The position numbers and the translations under genes are program-made. From Patescibacteria group bacterium (GTDB lineage: Bacteria; Patescibacteriota; Patescibacteriia; PEXW01), in the NCBI GenBank assembly GCA_041665345.1, contig JBAYJA010000004.1, positions 114,122 to 161,294 on the forward strand: a stretch of 47,173 bases of DNA, written 5' to 3'. Position 1 is the stretch's first letter, and each line of letters opens with the position of its first letter. The notes beneath the pieces are model-generated. The model saw only the letters and a program-made list of their open reading frames with translations. It made no database searches and was not told the DNA's origin. This document shows positions 196 through 10,120 of this stretch, one piece after another.

Positions 196-452
196 GGGGG
201 GTGGGTAAGGTTTGGGTGTGGCAGCGTGTATGGTTGGAAGGTTGGGGTGTGGGATGGGTAGAGGGGAAGACGGTGAAAATTTGGTTTGATTTGAATAGAG
301 CATGTTCCATGTAGTACAGACTTCGGACCGGTAAGGGTTACTTCTCCTTACCCCGGGGTGCTTCCGATGGGTCGCACCCGCCTGCTGGCCCCCTTGGAAA
401 GGGGAGGACATCTATGAACAGGCTTTGGTCAGTAATAAACCTCTATCCTCCC

Positions 453-575
453 CCCTCTGTCATTCTGAGTCTGACGACCTGTCCGCCGAAGTTTCTGAAC
501 GTAGGCGGAAGAATCTCCGAAGTGTACCCACAGTCTGGGGATCCTTCATATGATTCAGGATGACAGAAAGGAGGG
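453..575. repeat. palindromic intergenic element (CTGTCATTCTGA ... TCAGGATGACAG arms)
   Basis: Arms 457-468 and 555-566 are inverted repeats (11/12). An internal hairpin TCCGCC...GGCGGA is present. The element abuts the stop of the GDPD gene. The CTGTCATT core recurs at 17619-17629 (reverse) and 38177-38187. Confidence 0.45.
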
Positions 576-576
576 C

Positions 577-1245
577 TTAAGAAACCCGGTCTGGAAAATC
601 CGTGGCTACCCCGTCAACGCCTAGGGCACGTAAAGCCGCAATGCGGGTGGGTGTATTTGGAGTCCAGGCAAAAATTTTCAAACCCATACCATGCGCACGC
701 TCTACCATGTGTCTCGTTATGATGGGGAAAAAAGCACAGATTGTCATTGCCTGCATACGACGTGCTCCCCTTTCCCAGCCCCACGGCCACCAAAAGACAA
801 AGCCCATCCTCGCCGCGGGTCTAAGCACACGATATGTTTGGAGGAAATGCGAATGAAAGGAGATGATAAGCAAGTCGTCTTCCCGTACATGCTCGGTCTG
901 TGCCACAATCTTCGCAACAGCCTCAGCACTCCCAAAACTTTTTAATTCTACATTAATGTAGACCTTTTTATCCACCAACCTGAAAACTTCCTCCAAGGTT
1001 GGGATTCGTTCCCCTTTACCCGCGTCCAGCTTTTGCAATTCTGCCAACGTCATGTCTGCCACTCGGCCATGGCCGTTGGTGGTTCGATCCACCGTCGCGT
1101 CGTGGATGACCACCACTTCCCCGGTCTTACACACGTGCACATCCAGCTCCACCATGTCGCAGCCCAGGTCGATGGCTCGCTGAAAAGACCGGAGCGTGTT
1201 CTCCGGTTCCAGACCTGCGGCGCCGCGATGGCCAATGGTGAGCAT
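577..1245 (-). CDS. glycerophosphodiester phosphodiesterase (GDPD family)
   Basis: IGHRGAAGLEPENTLRSF, ELDVHVCKTGEVVVIHD and NVELK motifs typical of UgpQ/GlpQ. Start moved from 1377 to the ATG at 1245 (MLTIGHRG). The 44 residues upstream have no homology character and contain the promoter. Confidence 0.85.
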   Translation of the reverse strand: MLTIGHRGAAGLEPENTLRSFQRAIDLGCDMVELDVHVCKTGEVVVIHDATVDRTTNGHGRVADMTLAELQKLDAGKGERIPTLEEVFRLVDKKVYINVELKSFGSAEAVAKIVAQTEHVREDDLLIISFHSHFLQTYRVLRPAARMGFVFWWPWGWERGARRMQAMTICAFFPIITRHMVERAHGMGLKIFAWTPNTPTRIAALRALGVDGVATDFPDRVS

Positions 1246-1251
1246 GAAAGT

Positions 1252-1281
1252 ATTGTAGCCTGAGCCGCATCTCACCGCCAA
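1252..1281 (-). promoter_or_regulatory. promoter placed for a leaderless GDPD transcript
   Basis: Minus strand reads TTGGCG (1276-1281), 18 nt, TACAAT (1252-1257), then 6 nt, then the ATG at 1245. No Shine-Dalgarno. Confidence 0.4.
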
Positions 1282-1369
1282 TCTCCAGTACCCTTGACCA
1301 TTTCCACTTTCCGTAGTACAAAGAACGTTCAGTAAAAAACAAAAAACTTGGACGTTGAAAGGATGCAAC

Positions 1370-1837
1370 ATGGACAACTTGGAAATATACCAAGCCTTCG
1401 AAAAAAAATGGTTCGCCCTCCCGCTGGGAAAAGTGATTGTGGCGAATCTTCCTCGAGATCGCCGAACCTACACAGTCGCTTTCGCCTGCGGCAACCTTCG
1501 GCTCATATCCTCTTTGATTCTTAGCTCGCATGGTACCGTGTCGGAAGAGGTAACCCTGGTGGATATTGCGCAGCCCGTCGCCACGGACCGGGTACTGCTG
1601 CACGATAGAACCTTTGTGGGTCTGCCCACCCTGCTCATTGAATTGCCTAGTCTGGACCACATGATTCGGACAGGGCAAGGCGCGCCGCACGATCTGTGCC
1701 TGGAGCGCATGCACTTCAAGTTACTCTGGTTAAAAAGTAATCCAGAGCAATCGGAGGCATTTCTCCGTTCCCTCAAGCCCCATACGGAAACCGTGGGCAC
1801 CCTCTCTGCCTGGCGCACTGCCTACACAAAGGCGTAA
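1370..1837 (+). CDS. hypothetical protein (155 aa)
   Basis: AAAGGA 6 nt before the ATG at 1370, and a plus-strand rho-independent terminator follows the stop. The competing minus-strand ORFs overlap the GDPD gene. Confidence 0.55.
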   Translation: MDNLEIYQAFEKKWFALPLGKVIVANLPRDRRTYTVAFACGNLRLISSLILSSHGTVSEEVTLVDIAQPVATDRVLLHDRTFVGLPTLLIELPSLDHMIRTGQGAPHDLCLERMHFKLLWLKSNPEQSEAFLRSLKPHTETVGTLSAWRTAYTKA

Positions 1838-1854
1838 CAAAAAAAGTTCCTCCA

Positions 1855-1882
1855 GCAGCACCCCCAAAGGTGCTGCTTTTTT
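1855..1882 (+). terminator. rho-independent terminator
   Basis: GCAGCACC / GGTGCTGC stem followed by TTTTTT. Confidence 0.7.
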
Positions 1883-1885
1883 ATA

Positions 1886-1914
1886 ATGACAGAATTCCCT
1901 TTGTGTCGTACAAT
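1886..1914 (+). promoter_or_regulatory. promoter placed for a leaderless recombinase transcript
   Basis: ATGACA (1886-1891), 17 nt, TACAAT (1909-1914), then 7 nt to the ATG at 1922. No Shine-Dalgarno. Confidence 0.45.
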
Positions 1915-1921
1915 ATCAGAC

Positions 1922-2866
1922 ATGGCCGTCCCCATAAAAAAACTCCTTACTGACTTCCTGGAGTATTTGGAAGTGGAGAAGAATGTCTCACCGCTTACCG
2001 TGCGGAACTACGGCTTCTACCTCAAACGATTTGTAGATTCAGCCAAGCTGGAAAAACCCACCGATGTCACTATCGAAAAAGTGCGGCAGTTCCGGCTTTT
2101 CCTCAACCGCCAGCTGAACCACCAAAAAGAAGTATTGAAAGCCAGTACTCGGAATTATCACTTGATTGCGCTGCGCGCATTTTTGAAGTACCTGGCCAAA
2201 CGGGATGTCCCCAGTCTGGCTGCAGAGAAAGTGGAGCTTGCCAAGCAGACCGAGCGGCAGGTGAGCTTTTTGGAAGGGACGGACTTGGAGCGATTCTTGG
2301 AAGCACCGTTGAAATTGGAACAGCCGGATTTGCTGAAGGCCCGGGACAAGGCGATTCTGGAACTCCTCTTCTCCACTGGCTTGCGCGTTTCAGAACTGGC
2401 GAATCTAAAGAAGGATGGGATCAATTTGGAGAAAGACGAGTTTACGGTTCGCGGCAAAGGCGGGAAGCTCCGCATTGTCTTCCTCTCCCACAATGCCCGG
2501 CACTGGGTAGGCGCATATTTGAAAGCCCGGAATGATGACGAGCCGTGGATTTTCCTACGGCATGACCGCGCCATCAAACGCTCCGGCGCAGAACACAAAC
2601 CCTTGACCTCCCGATCCATTCAACGGTTGGTGCAGCACTACGCCACCGTGGCCGGCATTACCAAACGAATTACCCCGCACACGCTCCGGCACTCCTACGC
2701 CACCGACCTGCTCATGAATGGGGCGGACATTCGGAGTGTGCAATCCATGCTGGGACACGCCAGCATTACGACCACGCAAATTTACACCCACGTCACCAAC
2801 CAGCAGCTCCGCGAAGTGTACCAGGCCTACCACGGCCGGCGCCGGAAGAAAGACTCGTCCAAATAA
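1922..2866 (+). CDS. tyrosine site-specific recombinase, XerC/XerD-like
   Basis: C-terminal HTLRHSYATDLLMNGADIRSVQSMLGHASITTTQIYTHV (R-H-R-Y catalytic signature region). N-terminal SAM-like LTDFLEYLEVEKNVSPLTVRNY. Start chosen at MAVPIKK (1922) rather than 1886. Confidence 0.85.
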   Translation: MAVPIKKLLTDFLEYLEVEKNVSPLTVRNYGFYLKRFVDSAKLEKPTDVTIEKVRQFRLFLNRQLNHQKEVLKASTRNYHLIALRAFLKYLAKRDVPSLAAEKVELAKQTERQVSFLEGTDLERFLEAPLKLEQPDLLKARDKAILELLFSTGLRVSELANLKKDGINLEKDEFTVRGKGGKLRIVFLSHNARHWVGAYLKARNDDEPWIFLRHDRAIKRSGAEHKPLTSRSIQRLVQHYATVAGITKRITPHTLRHSYATDLLMNGADIRSVQSMLGHASITTTQIYTHVTNQQLREVYQAYHGRRRKKDSSK

Positions 2867-2873
2867 CTCCCTT

Positions 2874-3977
2874 ATGAAATACCTCATGATCGTGTTCATC
2901 GTTGCTGCCACTGTCATTATCATTGCCGGACATGGGCTGCTCTTCGTCTCGTGGGTGAAGTTTTTTCACATCACCTCGCACAGTCTCAAACTCTGGCTGG
3001 GTATTGCGTTGGGCATACTGAGCATCAGCTTCTTGGTGACCATCCTATTGGTACACGCTGTGGAGACGCAGTACACGGACGCACTGTACGCCGGTGCCTC
3101 GGCCTGGCTGGGTTTTGTGTGGTACGCCGCGTTAGCTGTTGCACTCACCTGGGCGCTCATTGGTTTGGCAAAATTGGCGCAGGTGAACCTGCCCATTAGT
3201 ACAATCTCCGCCATACTCCTGGTCATCGCTTTGGGCGTGAGTGTGTACGGCGTCTGGAATGCCTTTCACCCAGTGGTCACGCGCATAACCGTTCGTTTGC
3301 CCAACCTGCCCGAAACATGGAAAGGCCGGGTGGCTGTGCAACTCTCCGACATTCACCTGGGACCCATTCACCGTAAGAGCTTTTTGGATGACGTGCTCGC
3401 CCTGACGAAAAAAGAAAACCCCGACATTGTTTTTGTGACTGGTGATCTATTTGATGGCGGCGGCGCAGATATAGCAAACCTCCCCCTTGCCTTCAATACC
3501 CTTACCCCACCGCTTGGTACGTTCTTCAATACCGGGAACCACGAACAGTACCTGGGCTTGGAAAAATCCTTGGCTGCCATTGCAAAAACCAACTTGCGCG
3601 TGTTGCGAAACGAAATTGTGGATGCGGATGGAATGCAAATTGCCGGGCTGGATTACGCCGACACGCCGGATCGTACGGCAATCCAGAGTGTCCTGGCCAA
3701 GCGGGATACCACCGCCCCACTCATTGCCCTGTACCACGTCCCAATACTGCGTGACCTCTTCCAGGAAAATGGCGTGAACCTGCAACTCTCTGGCCATACG
3801 CACAAAGGCCAGCTCTGGCCCTTTGGGATTATTACCAAATGGGTGTACCAGGGGAAGGACATTGGCTTGCACACCGATGGCGAGTACAACATTTACACTT
3901 CAACCGGTGTTGGCACCTGGGGCCCGCCCATGCGCACGGGTAATCGACCAGAAATTGTAGTGATAAGATTTGAGTAG
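2874..3977 (+). CDS. membrane-anchored metallophosphoesterase (calcineurin-like)
   Basis: Several N-terminal TM helices, then SDIHLG, GDLFDGG, GNHE and GHTH motifs. Start moved to the ATG at 2874 (MKYLMIV), 5 nt after the recombinase stop. Confidence 0.8.
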   Translation: MKYLMIVFIVAATVIIIAGHGLLFVSWVKFFHITSHSLKLWLGIALGILSISFLVTILLVHAVETQYTDALYAGASAWLGFVWYAALAVALTWALIGLAKLAQVNLPISTISAILLVIALGVSVYGVWNAFHPVVTRITVRLPNLPETWKGRVAVQLSDIHLGPIHRKSFLDDVLALTKKENPDIVFVTGDLFDGGGADIANLPLAFNTLTPPLGTFFNTGNHEQYLGLEKSLAAIAKTNLRVLRNEIVDADGMQIAGLDYADTPDRTAIQSVLAKRDTTAPLIALYHVPILRDLFQENGVNLQLSGHTHKGQLWPFGIITKWVYQGKDIGLHTDGEYNIYTSTGVGTWGPPMRTGNRPEIVVIRFE

Positions 3978-3980
3978 TGG

Positions 3981-4009
3981 TTGACGTGCAGAGCAATCCA
4001 ACGTAGTAT
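3981..4009 (+). promoter_or_regulatory. sigma70-like promoter driving the tRNA-Arg / tRNA-derived array
   Basis: TTGACG (3981-3986), 17 nt, TAGTAT (4004-4009). The first tRNA-like unit starts at 4019. Confidence 0.55.
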
Positions 4010-4018
4010 GAGCAACTT

Positions 4019-4398
4019 GCCCCGGTAGTTCAACCCCGACGTTTGCGCAGCGCAAAGTCGGGGCTCCGACGCCAAAGGCCGTCGGAGCGGATAGAACCGT
4101 GGACTTCCCCGCCCGACTCGCCTGACGCCCTTGTAGTTTCCGGCGGAGCCGGATCCCCCGCCTCCCGAAGCCGTGCGGCGGGCAGGCGCTTCTGCGGGAC
4201 AATAGAGAAACCACGGACTTCCCCGCTTGCCTTGTTCGCCCCTGTAGCTCAACGGATCAGAGCAAGGGACTTCTAAGCCCGAGATGCACGTTCGATTCGT
4301 GCCAGGGGCACCAAGGCAAGCGGGGCAGGTAAGCCGGTTGTTGGGTTTCCGGCGTAGCCGGACCCCGCTACGCGGGGCAATTCCCTCCCGGGGCACCA
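4019..4398 (+). ncRNA. GC-rich structured array of tRNA-derived units (~110-nt period) enclosing one intact tRNA
   Basis: tRNA 5' starts recur at 4019 (GCCCCGGTAGTTCAAC), 4127 (GCCCTTGTAGTTTC) and 4238 (GCCCCTGTAGCTCAAC). The spacer ATAGA..GGACTTCCCCGC recurs at 4091-4112 and 4202-4226. Positions 4019-4025 pair perfectly with 4388-4394, followed by ACCA. No credible ORF. Confidence 0.6.
4238..4313 (+). tRNA. tRNA-Arg (anticodon TCT), CCA encoded
   Basis: 7-bp acceptor GCCCCTG/CAGGGGC. D arm GCTC-AACGGATCA-GAGC. Anticodon loop CTTCTAA. T arm GCACG-TTCGATT-CGTGC. Discriminator A plus CCA. The anticodon stem has only 3 G-C pairs, flanked by two A-G mismatches. Confidence 0.8.
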
Positions 4399-4413
4399 CC
4401 TATTCTGGACGAG

Positions 4414-4431
4414 TTCTGAAGGTGTACCTAA
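4414..4431 (+). repeat. left direct repeat bounding the AT-richer cassette
   Basis: TTCTGAAGGTGTACCTAA. Its partner at 7174-7192 is TTCTGAAAGGTATACCTAA (one indel, one substitution). Confidence 0.75.
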
Positions 4432-4471
4432 TATTGTATGTTTGTCTAAAGACCTAACACTAAATAGAAAA

Positions 4472-5542
4472 ATGGGAATTCAAGCACATAAAAAAACTCT
4501 CCCTTTGTTGACCGGGAATCTAGACGGCCTCAATCACTCGAAGTTACCGATACAAAATTGGGAATTTGTAGAAGCACGGTCATCTATCCGCGCTGCGCTT
4601 CGGTTCTTATTAGGAAAGCAACGATCGGACGGATCATGGCGCGATTTTAACGTCTTATTTGGTGAATCTTCTTCTTGGGTCACTGCATGTGTTCTCATCT
4701 CGCTTAGCGACACTCCTTCGTATGTACCTCGGGCTGACTTAGCCGGCGTTAAGGCCAAAGCACTTCAATTTCTTCGTTCGAGCTGCAAACCAACAGGCGG
4801 TTGGGGCTATAATGAAAATCCGATTGTTCCAGATGATTGTGATTCTACTGCCCATGCGATTCTCGCGTTCCGAATGAATGATCAGATGGTACCAAATCGT
4901 AACATAAGACGACTTGAGGAATTTGAGATCGAACCCGGTCATTTTGTCACATTCCTTAATCGAAAGGAAGGCCATTCTTGGGGTTTAACACATTCCGAAG
5001 TTGGGGCTATTGCAACAATCGCATTAGGTGGGTCTTCACGAGTTAGGGGACTGGCTGAGAAACTTGAATATGATCTGGACAGATTTGGCTCCTGGCCCAG
5101 TTTTTGGTGGCGCAAACCACTATATTCGACATATGCATGTTCTTGGTTCCTTTCGCATTTTGGAATTTGTTGTAGGTCTTTATCAGATCGTAGCGAGCAG
5201 TTGGCAGATACGCTGAGCAGTAGATCACCCTTGGAAGCAGCATTCTCAGGGCTTGCGGCGTATCAACTTGGCCATCACCAATTCGTGAAGAAAGCCTTTC
5301 GATACCTTATACGCAATCAGAAATCGGACGGATCTTGGGAATCATCAAGGCTCTTGCGTAATACCGATTCAGATCAAACTTCGAATTGGCTAAACACCGG
5401 TAAGGTTCGAGGCAAGTTGTATCACGATCAAAATAAAGTTTTTACAACATCTACAATCACACGATTTCTTATGACTGTAATCACCGAAGTACAACCATGT
5501 GACTATTCGATGTCGGCCTTTGAAGCTCATAATGTTCTATAA
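4472..5542 (+). CDS. prenyltransferase / squalene-cyclase-repeat protein (class II terpene cyclase-like, single alpha/alpha barrel)
   Basis: QW-type repeats QRSDGSW and QKSDGSW. GGWGYN followed by PDDCDSTA in the position of the GGW...DxDDTA motif. The ATG at 4472 is preferred over the TTG at 4442. Confidence 0.7.
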   Translation: MGIQAHKKTLPLLTGNLDGLNHSKLPIQNWEFVEARSSIRAALRFLLGKQRSDGSWRDFNVLFGESSSWVTACVLISLSDTPSYVPRADLAGVKAKALQFLRSSCKPTGGWGYNENPIVPDDCDSTAHAILAFRMNDQMVPNRNIRRLEEFEIEPGHFVTFLNRKEGHSWGLTHSEVGAIATIALGGSSRVRGLAEKLEYDLDRFGSWPSFWWRKPLYSTYACSWFLSHFGICCRSLSDRSEQLADTLSSRSPLEAAFSGLAAYQLGHHQFVKKAFRYLIRNQKSDGSWESSRLLRNTDSDQTSNWLNTGKVRGKLYHDQNKVFTTSTITRFLMTVITEVQPCDYSMSAFEAHNVL

Positions 5543-5553
5543 ACTTCTATAGT

Positions 5554-6588
5554 TCATTGATAGCCTGCAGCAATGAACTCATTCTGATCCCAGCAAGCTC
5601 GCTGCCGAATCCACTCGCAAAAAGCCCTGAGTTGCTCGCGTGTGCTGCCCGGCGAGAATTCAGCAAGCAGCCTCAAAGTCAACTCGAATTGTTTTTCAGC
5701 TCTCTGAAGCGCTGTTACCTGAACTTTCAATTCTCTCAATAATTGAGCAATCTGCCCTCCCGTCTTGGAGTCACACGTCTTTCCAATCGCGCCCAAAACT
5801 AGACTTCGCTCTGACGTGCTCGCTGAATCCAAAGCCACAGCGATCGGCAGGCTGAGATTTACCACATAGGAACTAGGCGCTTTTCGTCGCACCGAACTTT
5901 CCCCAGATTCATCGTATACATCATTATACATCTGATACGTCTTGCCAATTTCATTACCCAATGTCGCATAGCGAGTTACTGAATCACTATCGAAGCGCTG
6001 TAGACGAGCTGCGGCTATAAAGACAAAACGAAATAACGCGGATGTCTTCTGAAGTACCACTGACTCATAGAGTTCGACATATGATCCTCGAGGGGAAACA
6101 TACCCAACGTCGGCAAGTTCTCCAGTTGACATGCGGCGTATGGCGTGTCCGAACTCTGCGGCTAGATCTAATTTGTGGCTCTTATCTACTTTGTGCAGCC
6201 GAAGTATCGACTCTCCCAACAAGAGGGGAATGAGCAAGTTCGTTGCTTTGTTACCGTGCTGTTGGTGAAAGGTCTGATGCCCACGTCGGATGACATCCTC
6301 GTCAATTAAATCATCGAGAATGATTGATCCACGATGACACAATTCGATCACGGTCGCCAATTCTCCTGCTATCAGGTCATTTGACACGGTGTTCTTCTCA
6401 AGAAGCAGCATAAAGGTAAGTGGGCGCAATCTCCTGCCGGGGAAAAGAGCATCTCGCAGCAGTCCACGAAGCACAGAATCGCTTGTCGCCATAACGAAGT
6501 GATTCAAATTCTCATCAACTAACGATTGCACCTGACGGCGCGTCGAACGAGATAGAAACGAATCTATAGTGAGCTGCGGTTGGGACAT
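5554..6588 (-). CDS. polyprenyl (isoprenyl) diphosphate synthase-like protein
   Basis: GRRLRP, first Asp-rich motif ILDDLIDEDVIRRG, KTSALF, and second motif GKTYQMYNDVYD (N replaces the first Asp). Convergent with the cyclase-like gene, with an 11-nt gap. Confidence 0.8.
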   Translation of the reverse strand: MSQPQLTIDSFLSRSTRRQVQSLVDENLNHFVMATSDSVLRGLLRDALFPGRRLRPLTFMLLLEKNTVSNDLIAGELATVIELCHRGSIILDDLIDEDVIRRGHQTFHQQHGNKATNLLIPLLLGESILRLHKVDKSHKLDLAAEFGHAIRRMSTGELADVGYVSPRGSYVELYESVVLQKTSALFRFVFIAAARLQRFDSDSVTRYATLGNEIGKTYQMYNDVYDESGESSVRRKAPSSYVVNLSLPIAVALDSASTSERSLVLGAIGKTCDSKTGGQIAQLLRELKVQVTALQRAEKQFELTLRLLAEFSPGSTREQLRAFCEWIRQRACWDQNEFIAAGYQ

Positions 6589-6842
6589 ATTACAATACTA
6601 CCCCTTTGTCGTTAGCTGGCACAAGGACAAACCCCATCTGCATGTGGCTTCAGTAACTTACTGTGCCACAACCGCTCAGACAAGTGTACAGAGCCTCTAC
6701 GCTCCTTCCCAATTTTCCTTCCCCCAGAAACACCAGCTTCTTTATTTTTTTGCAGAAGCTCTTTGAACGTGAGTATGCCAGGATTATTCTGGTAGAAGGT
6801 TCAAACGTCGTGTATCAGGGCGCACCACCACAATAAAGCCTC

Positions 6843-6871
6843 TTGACGATATATCGTATATGATATATAGT
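6843..6871 (+). promoter_or_regulatory. promoter with overlapping palindrome (possible XRE operator)
   Basis: TTGACG (6843-6848), 17 nt, TATAGT (6866-6871). The perfect 10-bp palindrome CGATATATCG (6847-6856) overlaps the -35/spacer. Confidence 0.45.
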
Positions 6872-6892
6872 AGTTGTTGCGTAGACTATTTT

Positions 6893-7159
6893 ATGAATAA
6901 GAATAACTATCTCTACAAATTGCAAAAAAATAAGGAGTATAAGAAACTTCTTAAAGAAGAGAAGGATCTACTTGATATTGCTTTGCAGATTTCCCAAACA
7001 CGAAGGAAGCGTAAAATTACTCAGGTGCAATTGGCAAAAAGAGCTGGCATGCCCCAAAGTCAAATTGCAAGAATTGAAAGTGGGAATCATAACGTGACTA
7101 TCGGGACTCTAAATAGGGTTGCGGGTGCATTGAACTTACGAGTGGTTGTTGGAGAGTAG
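6893..7159 (+). CDS. XRE-family helix-turn-helix transcriptional regulator (88 aa)
   Basis: ITQVQLAKRAGMPQSQIARIESGNHNVTIGTLNRVAGAL is a classic HTH_3/Cro-C1 motif. Start moved to the ATG at 6893, because 6860 lies inside the promoter. Confidence 0.8.
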   Translation: MNKNNYLYKLQKNKEYKKLLKEEKDLLDIALQISQTRRKRKITQVQLAKRAGMPQSQIARIESGNHNVTIGTLNRVAGALNLRVVVGE

Positions 7160-7173
7160 TACGCTGGCATTCA

Positions 7174-7192
7174 TTCTGAAAGGTATACCTAA
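7174..7192 (+). repeat. right direct repeat bounding the AT-richer cassette
   Basis: TTCTGAAAGGTATACCTAA, 15 nt after the XRE stop. Partner of 4414-4431. Confidence 0.75.
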
Positions 7193-7371
7193 ACTTCCTC
7201 TACTTACTTTGAGGAATTTTACGTATTCACAGATTGAACGCAAAAAAACAAAGGTATGTTATGATTTCCAAAAATCAGCTTTTTTAGTCAGCCTTGACAA
7301 CGTTACCAATTTGGTATAAGTTCGTATTTGGACATACACAGACACTCACATTACAACCCAAGGAGGAAATT

Positions 7372-7662
7372 ATGTGCGGTGGATATCCTTACCCGCACCC
7401 GGCAGGACACGTCATTGCGCAGCTGGTATCTGGGCAAGAAGTGAAAGTTGCCAAAGGCTTTGGCTTTCCGAAAAAGCAAGAAGATTCGACCTGCATTATT
7501 GCACGCGTCGTTGGCTACTCTGCGCTTTGCGCTGATGGCACGCTGCTAGGTTGCATGGATGGCGCAGGCGTCACACCCACAGACGTCATCCACCAAACTT
7601 TTGAACTGAGCGATGCAGCCAAACAGAAAATCGCCGAGGTTGACGCAGAAAAACAAACCTAA
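7372..7662 (+). CDS. hypothetical small Cys-containing protein (96 aa)
   Basis: AAGGAGG 5 nt before the ATG at 7372. Possible promoter TTGACA (7294-7299) with TGgTATAAG (7312-7320). A terminator follows. Confidence 0.6.
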   Translation: MCGGYPYPHPAGHVIAQLVSGQEVKVAKGFGFPKKQEDSTCIIARVVGYSALCADGTLLGCMDGAGVTPTDVIHQTFELSDAAKQKIAEVDAEKQT

Positions 7663-7675
7663 AAATGTTACGTTA

Positions 7676-7702
7676 ACCGAGCGTCCTCTGCGCTCGGTTT
7701 TT
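7676..7702 (+). terminator. rho-independent terminator
   Basis: ACCGAGCG / CGCTCGGT stem followed by a T-run. Confidence 0.7.
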
Positions 7703-7746: not shown

Positions 7747-8253
7747 ATGCCCATCAACACTGATCCTCACATTCACCAGAATGTGATGTGCGCAAATGTG
7801 TACATCCGAAAAGGTGATAAGTATCTACTGCTCAAGCGCTCACCCAAGAAGCGGTTTTTGCCAAATCTCATTAATCCCATTGGCGGAAAAATTGAGCCCA
7901 ACGAAAACCCTTACCAAGCCGCACTCCGCGAAGTGCAAGAAGAGGCCGGGATTACGCTGAAGAACCTTCGGTTAGAGGCGGTGATTCTGGAAATTCAACC
8001 CTACAAGGATAAGCCGCACAACTGGCTGGTCTTCCATTTTTCTGCGGATTGGGACGCTGGTGAGCTGCAGCCCACAGAAGAAGGCGAGTTCATGTGGTTC
8101 ACCGCCGCTGAGATTCCACAGCAACCTCTTTTCCCGTCCGTGCGGGAAATTATTCACCATATCCTGAACCCAAAGGATGGCACGGTTTTCGCCACGATAT
8201 CCTATGATGAGAAAGGGAAGGTGGTGAACGTAGAAAAACAACTTTGCCTATGA
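7747..8253 (+). CDS. Nudix hydrolase
   Basis: Nudix box GGKIEPNENPYQAALREVQEEAGI. Confidence 0.85.
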   Translation: MPINTDPHIHQNVMCANVYIRKGDKYLLLKRSPKKRFLPNLINPIGGKIEPNENPYQAALREVQEEAGITLKNLRLEAVILEIQPYKDKPHNWLVFHFSADWDAGELQPTEEGEFMWFTAAEIPQQPLFPSVREIIHHILNPKDGTVFATISYDEKGKVVNVEKQLCL

Positions 8254-8783
8254 CGGACATAGAACTCCTCCACGTTATGGATGAACAAGGTAATGTGCTC
8301 CGCACAGTGACCCGTGAAGAGGCGGAGCGGGATAACCACCTGACCCCGAACGCTATCATGTTTATTTTTACGCCCAAAGGTGAAGTTTGGATCCAAAAGC
8401 GGGCGAAGACCAAGAAGCACTTCCCCGGGGTGTGGGATATTTCCGCGTGTGGCGGGATAGTCCACGATGAGAAACCAGAAGAGAGCGCACGGCGGGAAAT
8501 GGAAGAGGAGATGGGCTTCACTTGCAAGCTGCATTTCGTAGAAGCATTTTTGAACGAATTCCCAGGGGAAGACGGCTCGCTACGGCGGCGGCTATCCCAT
8601 CTCTTCATTGGCGTGAGTGACAAAATTCCGCAGGTGAACGAAGAAGTAGAAGAGTTTGCGGCAGTGTCTGTGACTGAACTGGTGAAAAGGATTCAAAGCC
8701 AGCCGGCAATGTACGTTCCCTCATTCCTGATGGAACTGGAGAAGGCGCGGGTAGCTGCCCAAGCTTTGGGTTTCCTACAGTAG
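8250..8783 (+). CDS. Nudix-superfamily protein resembling type 1 isopentenyl-diphosphate isomerase
   Basis: KRAKTKKHFPGVWDISACGGIVHDEKPEESARREMEEEMGF parallels E. coli Idi [20 protein letters not shown] (recalled from memory). The ATG at 8250 overlaps the upstream TGA (ATGA). Confidence 0.7.
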   Translation: MTDIELLHVMDEQGNVLRTVTREEAERDNHLTPNAIMFIFTPKGEVWIQKRAKTKKHFPGVWDISACGGIVHDEKPEESARREMEEEMGFTCKLHFVEAFLNEFPGEDGSLRRRLSHLFIGVSDKIPQVNEEVEEFAAVSVTELVKRIQSQPAMYVPSFLMELEKARVAAQALGFLQ

Positions 8784-9838: not shown

Positions 9839-9904
9839 AGCTTCCTTAGAGTACCGAAAAGCGGTTTTCTCGTCAAACCGGTTGATTATCCATCTTGTAC
9901 GCTT

Positions 9905-10044
9905 TTCTTACGGGGTCCCCACGAATGTGGCGCGGAGTCCTGCCGCAGGACGAGCACGCGTTCGTGGGGCAAAGCGAGGCTTCGCGCGACGGGCGGAGCG
10001 GAGACGTAGCAACGTCTACGCGCAGCTCTGAGCGCGAAACGAGC
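9905..10044. other. GC-rich multi-hairpin block directly 3' of tRNA-Lys
   Basis: Nested stems CCCCACGAA...TTCGTGGGG, GTCCTGC-C-GCAGGAC and AGACGT-AGCA-ACGTCT. No credible ORF and no T-run. Confidence 0.45.
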
Positions 10045-10120
10045 TGGTGCGTCCAGAGGGAATCGAACCCCCAACCTTGGGCTTAAGAGGCCCCTGCTCT
10101 GCCAGTTGAGCTATGGACGC
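10045..10120 (-). tRNA. tRNA-Lys (anticodon CTT), CCA encoded
   Basis: The reverse complement reads GCGTCCA-TA-GCTC..GAGC, anticodon loop CTCTTAA, T arm GGGGG-TTCGATT-CCCTC, then TGGACGC-A-CCA. Confidence 0.9.

Follow-up and report, generated by a model that had tools for sequence, protein, structure and literature searches.

We analysed a 47,173-nt stretch of contig JBAYJA010000004.1 from a Patescibacteria group bacterium (hereafter, the window), whose genome assembly totals 1.32 Mb in 11 contigs with a completeness figure of 100%. The analysis concerns two adjacent genes. The first (4472..5542, forward strand) encodes a single-domain (β-only) class II terpene cyclase of the MstE family, hereafter the barrel protein, assigned using Pfam, phmmer against the PDB, AlphaFold2 (AF2) and Foldseek. 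The second (5554..6588, reverse strand) encodes a 344-aa enzyme with the fold of the trans-isoprenyl diphosphate synthases (trans-IDSs), hereafter the prenyl enzyme, placed in a rare subfamily using Pfam polyprenyl_synt, AF2, Foldseek and subfamily conservation. Read from ATG 4472, the barrel protein comprises 356 residues followed by a TAA stop codon at 5540-5542, and not 357 residues as given in the first-pass annotation of this DNA; a TTG at 4442 is the other start option (frame 4442..5542, forward strand). The stop codon of the prenyl-enzyme gene occupies 5554-5556. The genes are convergent, with 11 nt between their stops, and the open reading frames (ORFs), the Pfam and PDB matches and the junction bear out the earlier description of a terpenoid-type pair in this arrangement. 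In a second groundwater study (run X2), contigs of identical sequence span 3889-5524 and 5496-7547. They bridge the junctions, and misassembly therefore does not account for the gene arrangement. Run X1 was not counted as independent, since it may be the source sample. An organism of the CPR/Patescibacteria kind also fits the 0.6-1.3 Mb genomes of the phylum sample, the groundwater source of the runs with the locus and the pathways found missing below. The sequencing runs listed as holding the locus included no RNA dataset.

The barrel protein was identified from both sequence and fold. Using phmmer, its PDB matches were 6ij1, entitled "Prenylcyclase" (4.9e-15), 8pak (2.4e-13) and MstE (1.8e-11); squalene-hopene cyclase (SHC) was far weaker, at ~1e-3 over 80 residues. 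Pfam SQHop_cyclase_C gave a local match of 31.6 bits (cut-off 26.1). The AF2 model, built from 18 relatives, was one helical barrel with a predicted local distance difference test score (pLDDT) of 86.8 and a predicted template modelling score (pTM) of 0.86. In a Foldseek search of the PDB, the top 12 chains were all single-domain class II cyclases (8pak, 8paj, the MstE entries and 6ij1; 334-352 residues), with E-values of 1e-14 to 8e-12 and template modelling (TM) scores of 0.70-0.75. Two-domain drimenyl diphosphate synthases and SHC came next, the drimenyl type at ranks 13-20. Two repeats, at about residues 40-56 and 272-289, are of the QW type, named here after what we take to be the QW consensus; they are visible in the DNA as a 41-nt repeat (4599-4639 / 5298-5338) that is 71% identical. 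The barrel protein belongs to the single-domain class II terpene cyclases typified by MstE: it has a single barrel of ~350 aa, the D-x-D motif and similarity to the solved members. It is not a canonical two-domain class II cyclase, as it has one domain and a Ser in place of the third Asp. The closest relative among 5.8 billion proteins, P0002, is 47% identical and is encoded on a 27-kb contig; the barrel protein adds a new and divergent member to a family already described. The Protein Atlas gives the same family names for both the barrel protein and the prenyl enzyme.

The acid motif of the barrel protein had been described as non-canonical. It lies within PDDCDSTA (residues 120-127), close to a GGWGYN loop (residues 109-114). 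D122, D124, S125 and T126 are invariant in all 18 aligned relatives, as is G110-W-G-Y-N114. In the phmmer alignments, DDCDST lies opposite DADTT in MstE and DADST in 6ij1 and 8pak. The 6sbf chain, MstE Y157F, has Phe at chain position 158, so the chain numbering equals the numbering of the paper plus 1. With this offset, the catalytic Asp named in the PDB titles D109N and D109A is the second Asp of DADTT, opposite D124. Indeed, the central proton-donor Asp had been recognized as kept, and the alignments to MstE, 6ij1, 8pak and, for the prenyl enzyme, 3rmg agree with the motif positions assigned in the first-pass annotation. An excerpt of PMC12324236 gives the acid motif of MstE as DxD instead of DxDD. 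To judge from the aligned sequences, D-x-D-(S/T)-T is the standard acid motif of the single-domain family and is not non-canonical. The attractive inference drawn from an odd catalytic motif was wrong; the motif is the signature of a described cyclase family.

The barrel protein also matched Pfam TED_complement, with 28.3 bits against a cut-off of 22 and over residues 36-110 (31-114 at the widest) only. This partial match is what favours a non-terpenoid α/α-toroid of the binding or thioester type, either A2M TED-like or LanC-like. Against such a role, the 12 best folds are those of terpene cyclases, and complement C5 appeared at rank 49 with a TM score of 0.46. Moreover, neither the acid motif nor GGWGYN varies within the family. 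LanC was matched in neither Pfam nor NCBIfam and was absent from the Foldseek rows shown. With hidden Markov model (HMM) and structure checks finding neither a LanC- nor an A2M-type fold and no misassigned motif, we consider a toroid of this kind very improbable.

The prenyl enzyme matched Pfam polyprenyl_synt (PF00348) with 97.7 bits, against a cut-off of 27. Its 16 NCBIfam matches were all far below cut-off, the best having 87.3 bits against 450, and NCBIfam thus placed it in none of the named synthase equivalogs (farnesyl diphosphate (FPP), geranylgeranyl diphosphate (GGPP), hepta-, octa- or solanesyl diphosphate). The AF2 model (pLDDT 85.8) had TM scores of 0.69-0.78 to many IDS structures, the best being medium- and long-chain trans-IDSs. 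The closest folds were C40-C50 and GGPP synthases, and no prenyltransferase structure stood out as especially similar. The first Asp-rich motif (FARM) is DDLIDED, residues 92-98, and the second (SARM) is NDVYD, residues 222-226, within NDVYDESGE (222-230). In the phmmer alignment to the octaprenyl diphosphate synthase 3rmg, these lie opposite DDVVDES and DDIFD, respectively. Thus, the fold, the Pfam score and a first motif of the form DDxx(xx)D agree with membership of PF00348, and the second motif, NDVYD, departs from DDxxD. Other features of the sequence are Y218-Q219 ahead of the second motif and a C-terminus reading CWDQ...AGY.

We evaluated these features across the subfamily. A word-indexed search yielded seven close relatives, and a profile search of 1.84 billion cluster representatives yielded a graded set, from 485 down to 180 bits, that reached the C-terminus. 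The profile matches and the query set together comprised 35 sequences of 323-375 aa (clusters at 50% identity). All 35 have N222, D223, D226, R52 and every Asp of the first motif (D92, D93 and D96); Asn stands for the first Asp of the second motif, and Arg for the usual Lys of the GK motif, throughout. The Tyr ahead of the Gln, Y218, is present in 33 members and the A-G-Y C-terminus in 34, versus one of the 120 next-best library matches. By this clear sequence signature, the N-D-x-x-D / A-G-Y proteins form a coherent, uncharacterised subfamily that occurs sporadically in accessory, variable regions. Ahead of the first motif, positions -5/-4 carry small residues, which point to a deep pocket that would suit chains of C15-C20 or longer.

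The first-pass annotation had considered NDVYDESGE closer to the NSE/DTE motif of class I terpene synthases than to a chain-elongation motif. The subfamily argues otherwise: the class I triad (N/D)Dxx(S/T)xxxE was not found, position 5 of the motif being Asp in 35/35 members and never Ser or Thr, and the Glu at the ninth position (E230) occurring in 1/35. On these two counts, the resemblance is a coincidence of this one sequence. A second polyprenyl-synthase-like gene lies on another contig of the genome (G000:C1, L002 574-2625). It encodes 683 aa, with an N-terminal extension of ~270 aa for which NCBIfam gave no match, and its second motif, NDLGD, also begins with Asn.

A metagenome scan recovered 51 loci with barrel relatives. 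In 34 of these, a conserved gene of ~370 aa lies directly upstream and overlaps the start of the barrel gene. A 15-member profile of its product matched aromatic prenyltransferases of the dimethylallyltryptophan synthase (DMATS) type, namely 6zrz (4.2e-13), PriB (1.6e-10) and 6-dimethylallyltryptophan synthase (4.1e-10); Pfam Trp_DMAT was detected in four of the 15 members. An upstream DMATS-type (ABBA) prenyltransferase was present in 29 of 34 judgeable loci and was fused to the barrel in two (L060 and L061), with an added acyltransferase domain. The L061 fusion (287-3409; 1041 aa) comprises an aromatic prenyltransferase-like region, an MstE-like barrel and an acyltransferase (Acyl_transf_1, 6.2e-54). 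L015 (2352-6932) and ~30 similar metagenome loci hold a conserved operon of three ORFs without a Pfam family (273, 303 and 251 aa), a DMATS-type prenyltransferase and an MstE-like cyclase. The operon resembles the published NctPC type with its parts on separate genes, and no precursor could be identified in it. A soil origin of the ABBA-paired loci is only suggested, by Atlas clusters dominated by Acidobacteriota.

A quick maximum-likelihood tree of the barrels, from which 8 of the 51 loci with <250 aligned residues were left out, was evaluated using the Shimodaira-Hasegawa-like approximate likelihood ratio test (SH-aLRT). The window barrel fell with P0002 and the barrel of L014 in a separate clade (SH-aLRT 100), beside the ABBA-paired clade; branches within the window clade are long. 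Only one longer relative was found, of 821 aa. It was considered as a fusion to a prenyl enzyme and ruled out, being a two-domain SHC-like protein. L014 (5195-12749) holds the closest metagenome barrel relative, at 35% identity. Its order is a serine recombinase beside a cut Mg-chelatase-like gene, the barrel, a VTT/DedA membrane protein, the 329-aa P0178 and a 703-aa protein. P0178 (L014 9641-10627), encoded two genes downstream of the barrel, has Asp-rich strings like those of the first and second motifs, a motif-level lead only. It had no Pfam or NCBIfam match, its hhalign probability to the prenyl-enzyme subfamily was 0.2%, and its PDB matches to dehydrosqualene synthase had E-values of 0.4-0.6.

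As stated in the first-pass annotation, the window holds no genes of the methylerythritol phosphate (MEP) or mevalonate pathways. In the whole 1.32-Mb genome, IspG, Dxr, GHMP kinases, 3-hydroxy-3-methylglutaryl-CoA (HMG-CoA) reductase and UbiA were not found in searches that had positive controls in 5-14 reference genomes each. IspH, on another contig, and undecaprenyl diphosphate (UPP) synthase were found, and IspH looks like an orphan. The genome is without a detectable pathway to isopentenyl diphosphate (IPP). Given that IspG, Dxr, GHMP kinases, HMG-CoA reductase and UbiA were not found, the cell must import its prenyl donor or the C5 units of that donor, and a host or partner is the presumed source. 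Among 30 relatives, UPP synthase is present in 18 and any PF00348 gene in only four. Thus, the lineage needs no trans-IDS of its own for UPP synthase, and the prenyl-enzyme gene is not that of a housekeeping FPP synthase.

The accessory status of the pair was evaluated in a 12-kb DNA search against the genomes of three relatives. The stretch 4400-7700 had no DNA match in any of the three, although both flanks match. On the left, 986-3702 is kept at 83% identity in a same-genus genome and covers a XerC-like recombinase and a metallophosphoesterase; on the right, Nudix genes from 7745 onward match a same-family genome. DNA left of a tRNA-Arg gene is kept in relatives, whereas that to its right is not. 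The GC content is 0.45-0.46 in the stretch versus 0.52-0.54 upstream. The 150 same-class genomes searched yielded no prenyl-enzyme ortholog (best match, 46 bits), and weak barrel matches, with E-values of 1e-9 or worse, occurred in only 7 of 400 genomes of the phylum. The stretch is accessory, as had been proposed, and is probably a horizontally acquired insert. The first-pass annotation had also called it mobile-looking, a description that fared less well. The same-genus genome shares, at 83% identity, the only recombinase in the vicinity (1886-2866) together with its flank, and the "integrase" is thus a conserved chromosomal gene; the repeat search found no convincing attachment-site repeats around the island. 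Mobility of the island is therefore not demonstrated. Viral contigs held no relative of either protein. Among plasmids, the prenyl enzyme had no match and the barrel a single distant one (25.7% identity), on a Deinococcus plasmid whose gene context was uninformative. PADLOC defence models matched neither protein, nor the ORF at 7294-7662 described below, nor the neighbours of their relatives, except for generic helix-turn-helix models and one match with an E-value of 0.007.

The left edge of the accessory stretch is the tRNA-Arg gene (anticodon TCT; 4238..4313, forward strand), detected using ARAGORN and matched by Rfam tRNA with 61 bits. A 24-nt inverted repeat (4218-4241 / 4305-4328) encloses it. 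Its flanks at 3912-3944, 4104-4192 and 4341-4385 are short GC-rich pieces that recur in the genomes of relatives and, as loose ends, in other contigs of both groundwater runs. In both runs, one contig has CT inserted after 4171. On the right, the likely edge is a terminator-like hairpin found by scanning (7675..7699, forward strand), with a 10-bp stem followed by a T run. The last gene before it (7294..7662, forward strand) is an ORF without a known family, of 122 aa from a TTG or 96 aa from ATG 7372; it was matched in none of Pfam, NCBIfam and PADLOC and had no relative in the fetched loci or the rest of the genome.

Between these edges, the stretch has an XRE gene of its own, as had been reported. 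It encodes a helix-turn-helix protein of 99 aa (6860..7159, forward strand; Pfam HTH_3, 4e-12), matched in PADLOC by generic helix-turn-helix models only; ATG 6893, further in, is possibly its true start. The intergenic region between this gene and the divergent prenyl-enzyme gene (6589..6859) is associated with a promoter-like site at 6843-6871 and a 16-nt inverted repeat (6739-6754 / 6921-6936). In a consensus scan, the site had 10 of 12 hexamer matches, and such sites are no commoner than in shuffled sequence. We infer only from this layout that the region, with its inverted repeat, may be regulatory; the XRE protein probably controls the divergent prenyl-enzyme gene.

Two further features lie to the right of the stretch. 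The Nudix protein at 8244-8783 (forward strand) is most like type 1 isopentenyl-diphosphate isomerase, with 77.4 bits to NF002995 (cut-off 127) and 43.2 bits to TIGR02150 (cut-off 105.8). Its conservation in a same-family genome without the island shows that it does not belong to the island. Beside a tRNA-Lys gene (10045-10120, reverse strand), ~130-170 nt within 9900-10080 form a dispersed repeat, for which the same-genus genome G536 gave >20 separate matches (70-93% identity) and G537 gave several; at this repeat, Rfam detected tRNA only.

Most judgeable relatives of the barrel protein lie behind, or are fused to, a DMATS-type prenyltransferase, and for this reason we read the pair, like NctPC and ChrPC, as one that transfers or builds a prenyl chain and then cyclises it. 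The form of this reading that we favour as the most economical, at about even chances of being correct, is a two-step module in which the prenyl enzyme delivers the chain, more likely by transfer to a non-IPP acceptor, and the single-domain cyclase then cyclises it. The two island enzymes would act in sequence on one isoprenoid chain. In the first step, Mg2+ and the intact first motif of the trans-IDS-fold enzyme would hold an allylic prenyl diphosphate. The altered second motif, Y-Q-x-x-N-D-x-x-D, would permit passage of the chain to a non-IPP acceptor, by analogy with Ord1/XiaM, ComQ, PalQ and the P domain of ChrPC; chain extension or irregular coupling would be a less likely variant of this step. 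In the second, D124 of the cyclase, whose fold and motif are established above, would protonate the terminal double bond, and the prenyl tail would then fold into a polycyclic moiety.

The observations given first in this paragraph and those on the pairing in the next weigh against the two-step module. R52/R53/R55, H85, R101/R102, K181/T182 and Q219, which we take to be the residues that bind the allylic and IPP diphosphates in true synthases, are all retained in 35/35 members of the subfamily, so chain elongation is still feasible. Asn at position 1 of the second motif is not peculiar to the subfamily, 41 of 120 neighbouring library matches having it too. NCBIfam gave no match of the prenyl enzyme to ComQ, and fusion to a cyclase is absent from all 35 subfamily representatives. 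Sequence alone does not separate a transferase from a synthase here. In the main alternative, which we regard as possible yet doubtful, the two would be a minimal terpenoid pair, as the first-pass annotation had it: the prenyl enzyme would be a true synthase, working by chain elongation or irregular coupling, and its diphosphate product, or the alcohol derived from it, would go straight to the cyclase with no separate acceptor. The conserved diphosphate-binding residues, the polyprenyl_synt score of 97.7 bits and the closeness of the fold to C40-C50 and GGPP synthases favour it, and two-domain class II cyclases such as drimenyl diphosphate synthase, at fold ranks 13-20, use FPP itself. Further, an excerpt of PMC10960109 links N-D-x-x-D to regular coupling in one insect enzyme, that of a mealybug with NDYYD, as well as to irregular coupling in chrysanthemyl diphosphate synthase. 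On the other side, parts of PMC12324236 and PMC13290415 describe the named single-domain relatives, MstE and the NctPC and ChrPC C domains, as using a prenyl chain that an aromatic group already carries. The barrel relatives lie beside an aromatic prenyltransferase in 29/34 judgeable loci and beside a trans-IDS in 0/51, there is no IPP pathway in the genome to feed elongation, and several invariant positions, as well as the C-terminal tail, set the subfamily apart from ordinary synthases.

The second set of observations concerns whether the pairing recurs. None of the 51 barrel loci had a trans-IDS gene, as evaluated using tblastn and an HMM that detected its positive controls (L001, L002, L071-L073 and L013). 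Only one close relative of the prenyl enzyme, in L013, a metagenome-assembled genome of Ignavibacteriales, had visible context, and no barrel was detectable anywhere in that genome. The order in L013 is an XRE gene, a 200-aa membrane protein, the prenyl enzyme, a major facilitator superfamily (MFS) transporter, a recombinase and restriction-type genes; among 285 genomes of the class to which L013 belongs, it is the only one with a member of the subfamily. At least four other small genomes of the phylum (L091-L094) encode MstE-like single-domain barrels, with 116-144 bits to the family profile, and no IDS or ABBA prenyltransferase lies within 8 kb of them. The tally of the pairing elsewhere is thus 0/51 barrel loci, 0/1 prenyl-enzyme locus and 0/4 small-genome barrels (within 8 kb); the exact pairing was not seen in any other locus examined. 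Because they are convergent, the two genes do not form one operon. Near the pair, we found no Trp-bearing precursor peptide or other acceptor gene. No small ORF there was convincing, and the only unassigned one, at 7372-7662, has no support as an acceptor: its ATG-started form contains no Trp and it has no relatives. A complex prediction for the barrel protein and the prenyl enzyme (score 0.00, mark 0.32) was weighed neither way.

Alternatively, the two could be unrelated accessory genes lying side by side, each with other partners or acting alone, and yielding no joint product. The convergent orientation, the pairing's absence from every other locus examined and the lack of an acceptor gene all point this way, as does the occurrence of each family alone on an island with a serine recombinase, the prenyl enzyme in L013 and the barrel in L014. 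However, both genes lie in one 3.3-kb stretch that is missing from relatives, and both use isoprenoid chains. The genome, moreover, offers neither protein another prenyltransferase or cyclase partner, neither UbiA nor a second SQHop-type gene having been found. P0178, the next-but-one neighbour of the barrel in L014, carries Asp-rich strings, which count here as a motif-level lead only. Overall, we judge it unlikely that the two genes are unrelated.

A broader hypothesis extends the two-step module. The N-D-x-x-D / A-G-Y proteins might be a new functional class of trans-IDS-fold enzymes that transfer a long prenyl chain and do not elongate it; a host-dependent, ultra-small bacterium without IPP synthesis would have acquired one together with a single-domain cyclase and would make a polycyclic lipid or lipidated peptide from host-derived prenyl diphosphates. 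We advance this as speculation that is somewhat more probably wrong than the synthase alternative. If true, the product could serve the membrane in the manner of a sterol or hopanoid, or act where the bacterium meets its host. As the terpenoid-tailoring genes lie in a genome without a C5 route, uptake of precursors from a partner organism is a testable prediction.

Comparison with known systems places each protein separately. SHC and the other two-domain DxDD cyclases share with the barrel protein the superfamily, the position of the proton-donor Asp and the QW repeats. The barrel protein differs from them in having one domain instead of two and D-x-D-S instead of D-x-D-D, and its TM score normalised by the SHC-type target is 0.34. 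The single-domain cyclases are closer. MstE (merosterolic acid synthase of Scytonema; PDB 6SBB), 8PAK, 8PAJ and 6IJ1 each consist of one α/α barrel of ~350 aa with no γ domain, as does the barrel protein. The likeness to MstE, 8PAK and 6IJ1 includes the aligned D-x-D-(S/T)-T, the QW-type repeats and the GxWGYN loop, which reads GGWGYN in the window protein, 8pak and 6ij1 and GEWGYN in MstE. Nevertheless, identity to this group is only 21-25%, and the MstE loop with Y157 and R337 is not reliably alignable to the barrel protein. The substrate of MstE is reportedly made by a prenyltransferase of a different kind. Unlike the MstE host, the bacterium described here has a 1.3-Mb genome without IPP synthesis or a UbiA gene.

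The prenyl enzyme shares with the canonical trans-IDSs of PF00348 (FPP, GGPP and octaprenyl diphosphate synthases) the fold, the first motif, RRG, KT and the Gln before the second motif. It differs in having Asn for the first Asp of the second motif, Tyr for Phe, GR for GK, E-R-G in place of G-K...D after the second motif, and the unique CWDQ...AGY C-terminus. First-position Asn is shared with other enzymes: according to an excerpt of PMC7484799, fungal IDS-like terpene synthases (ILTPS) have NDxxSxxxD/E, with Asn in place of the first Asp, and a passage in PMC10960109 links an N-D-x-x-D second motif to irregular coupling in chrysanthemyl diphosphate synthase. The prenyl enzyme lacks the full NSE/DTE triad and has no phylogenetic link to either. 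The tryptophan/indole prenyltransferases Ord1/XiaM, ComQ and PalQ resemble it in combining the trans-IDS fold and an intact first motif with an altered second motif. Ord1 is described in parts of PMC12510300 as a farnesyl-indole transferase with an IDS fold, Y215-Q216 and a pseudo-SARM that performs no condensation of isoprene units; XiaM is described there as having the same Y-Q and pseudo-SARM. The prenyl-enzyme subfamily likewise has Tyr-Gln ahead of its second motif, as in Ord1 Y215/Q216. The pseudo-SARM is D-D-x-x-A in Ord1 and is lost in ComQ, versus N-D-x-x-D in the prenyl enzyme, and Ord1 was absent from the best 60 sequence matches of the prenyl enzyme and from the listed Foldseek rows (ranks to 50).

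The closest parallels to the pair as a whole are NctPC and ChrPC. In the portion of PMC13290415 consulted, NctPC is an ABBA prenyltransferase fused to an MstE-like cyclase that geranylgeranylates tryptophan and then cyclises the chain, ChrPC is a trans-IDS-like prenyltransferase fused to an MstE-like cyclase, and the second motif of trans-IDS-like prenyltransferases is described as repurposed for acceptor recognition. The window pair resembles both in combining a prenyl-transferring enzyme with an MstE-like cyclase, and the form with ABBA plus cyclase is that of 29/34 judgeable barrel relatives. In contrast to ChrPC and NctPC, the window has separate, convergent genes and no precursor peptide that we could find, and its prenyl enzyme keeps the residues of the IPP site. 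With respect to ChrPC in particular, the pair has the MstE-like cyclase module and lacks both the joining of P and C domains in one polypeptide and a Trp precursor gene; this likeness is drawn from the description in the review and not from sequence comparison. Thus, a prenyl enzyme with an MstE-like cyclase is already known as a kind of system. What is new is the split, convergent arrangement, the uncharacterised N-D-x-x-D / A-G-Y partner and the occurrence in a genome without IPP synthesis. The loci provide genomic support for viewing single-domain class II cyclases as modular partners of prenyltransferases of differing folds, ABBA in the metagenome loci and trans-IDS-type in the present window.

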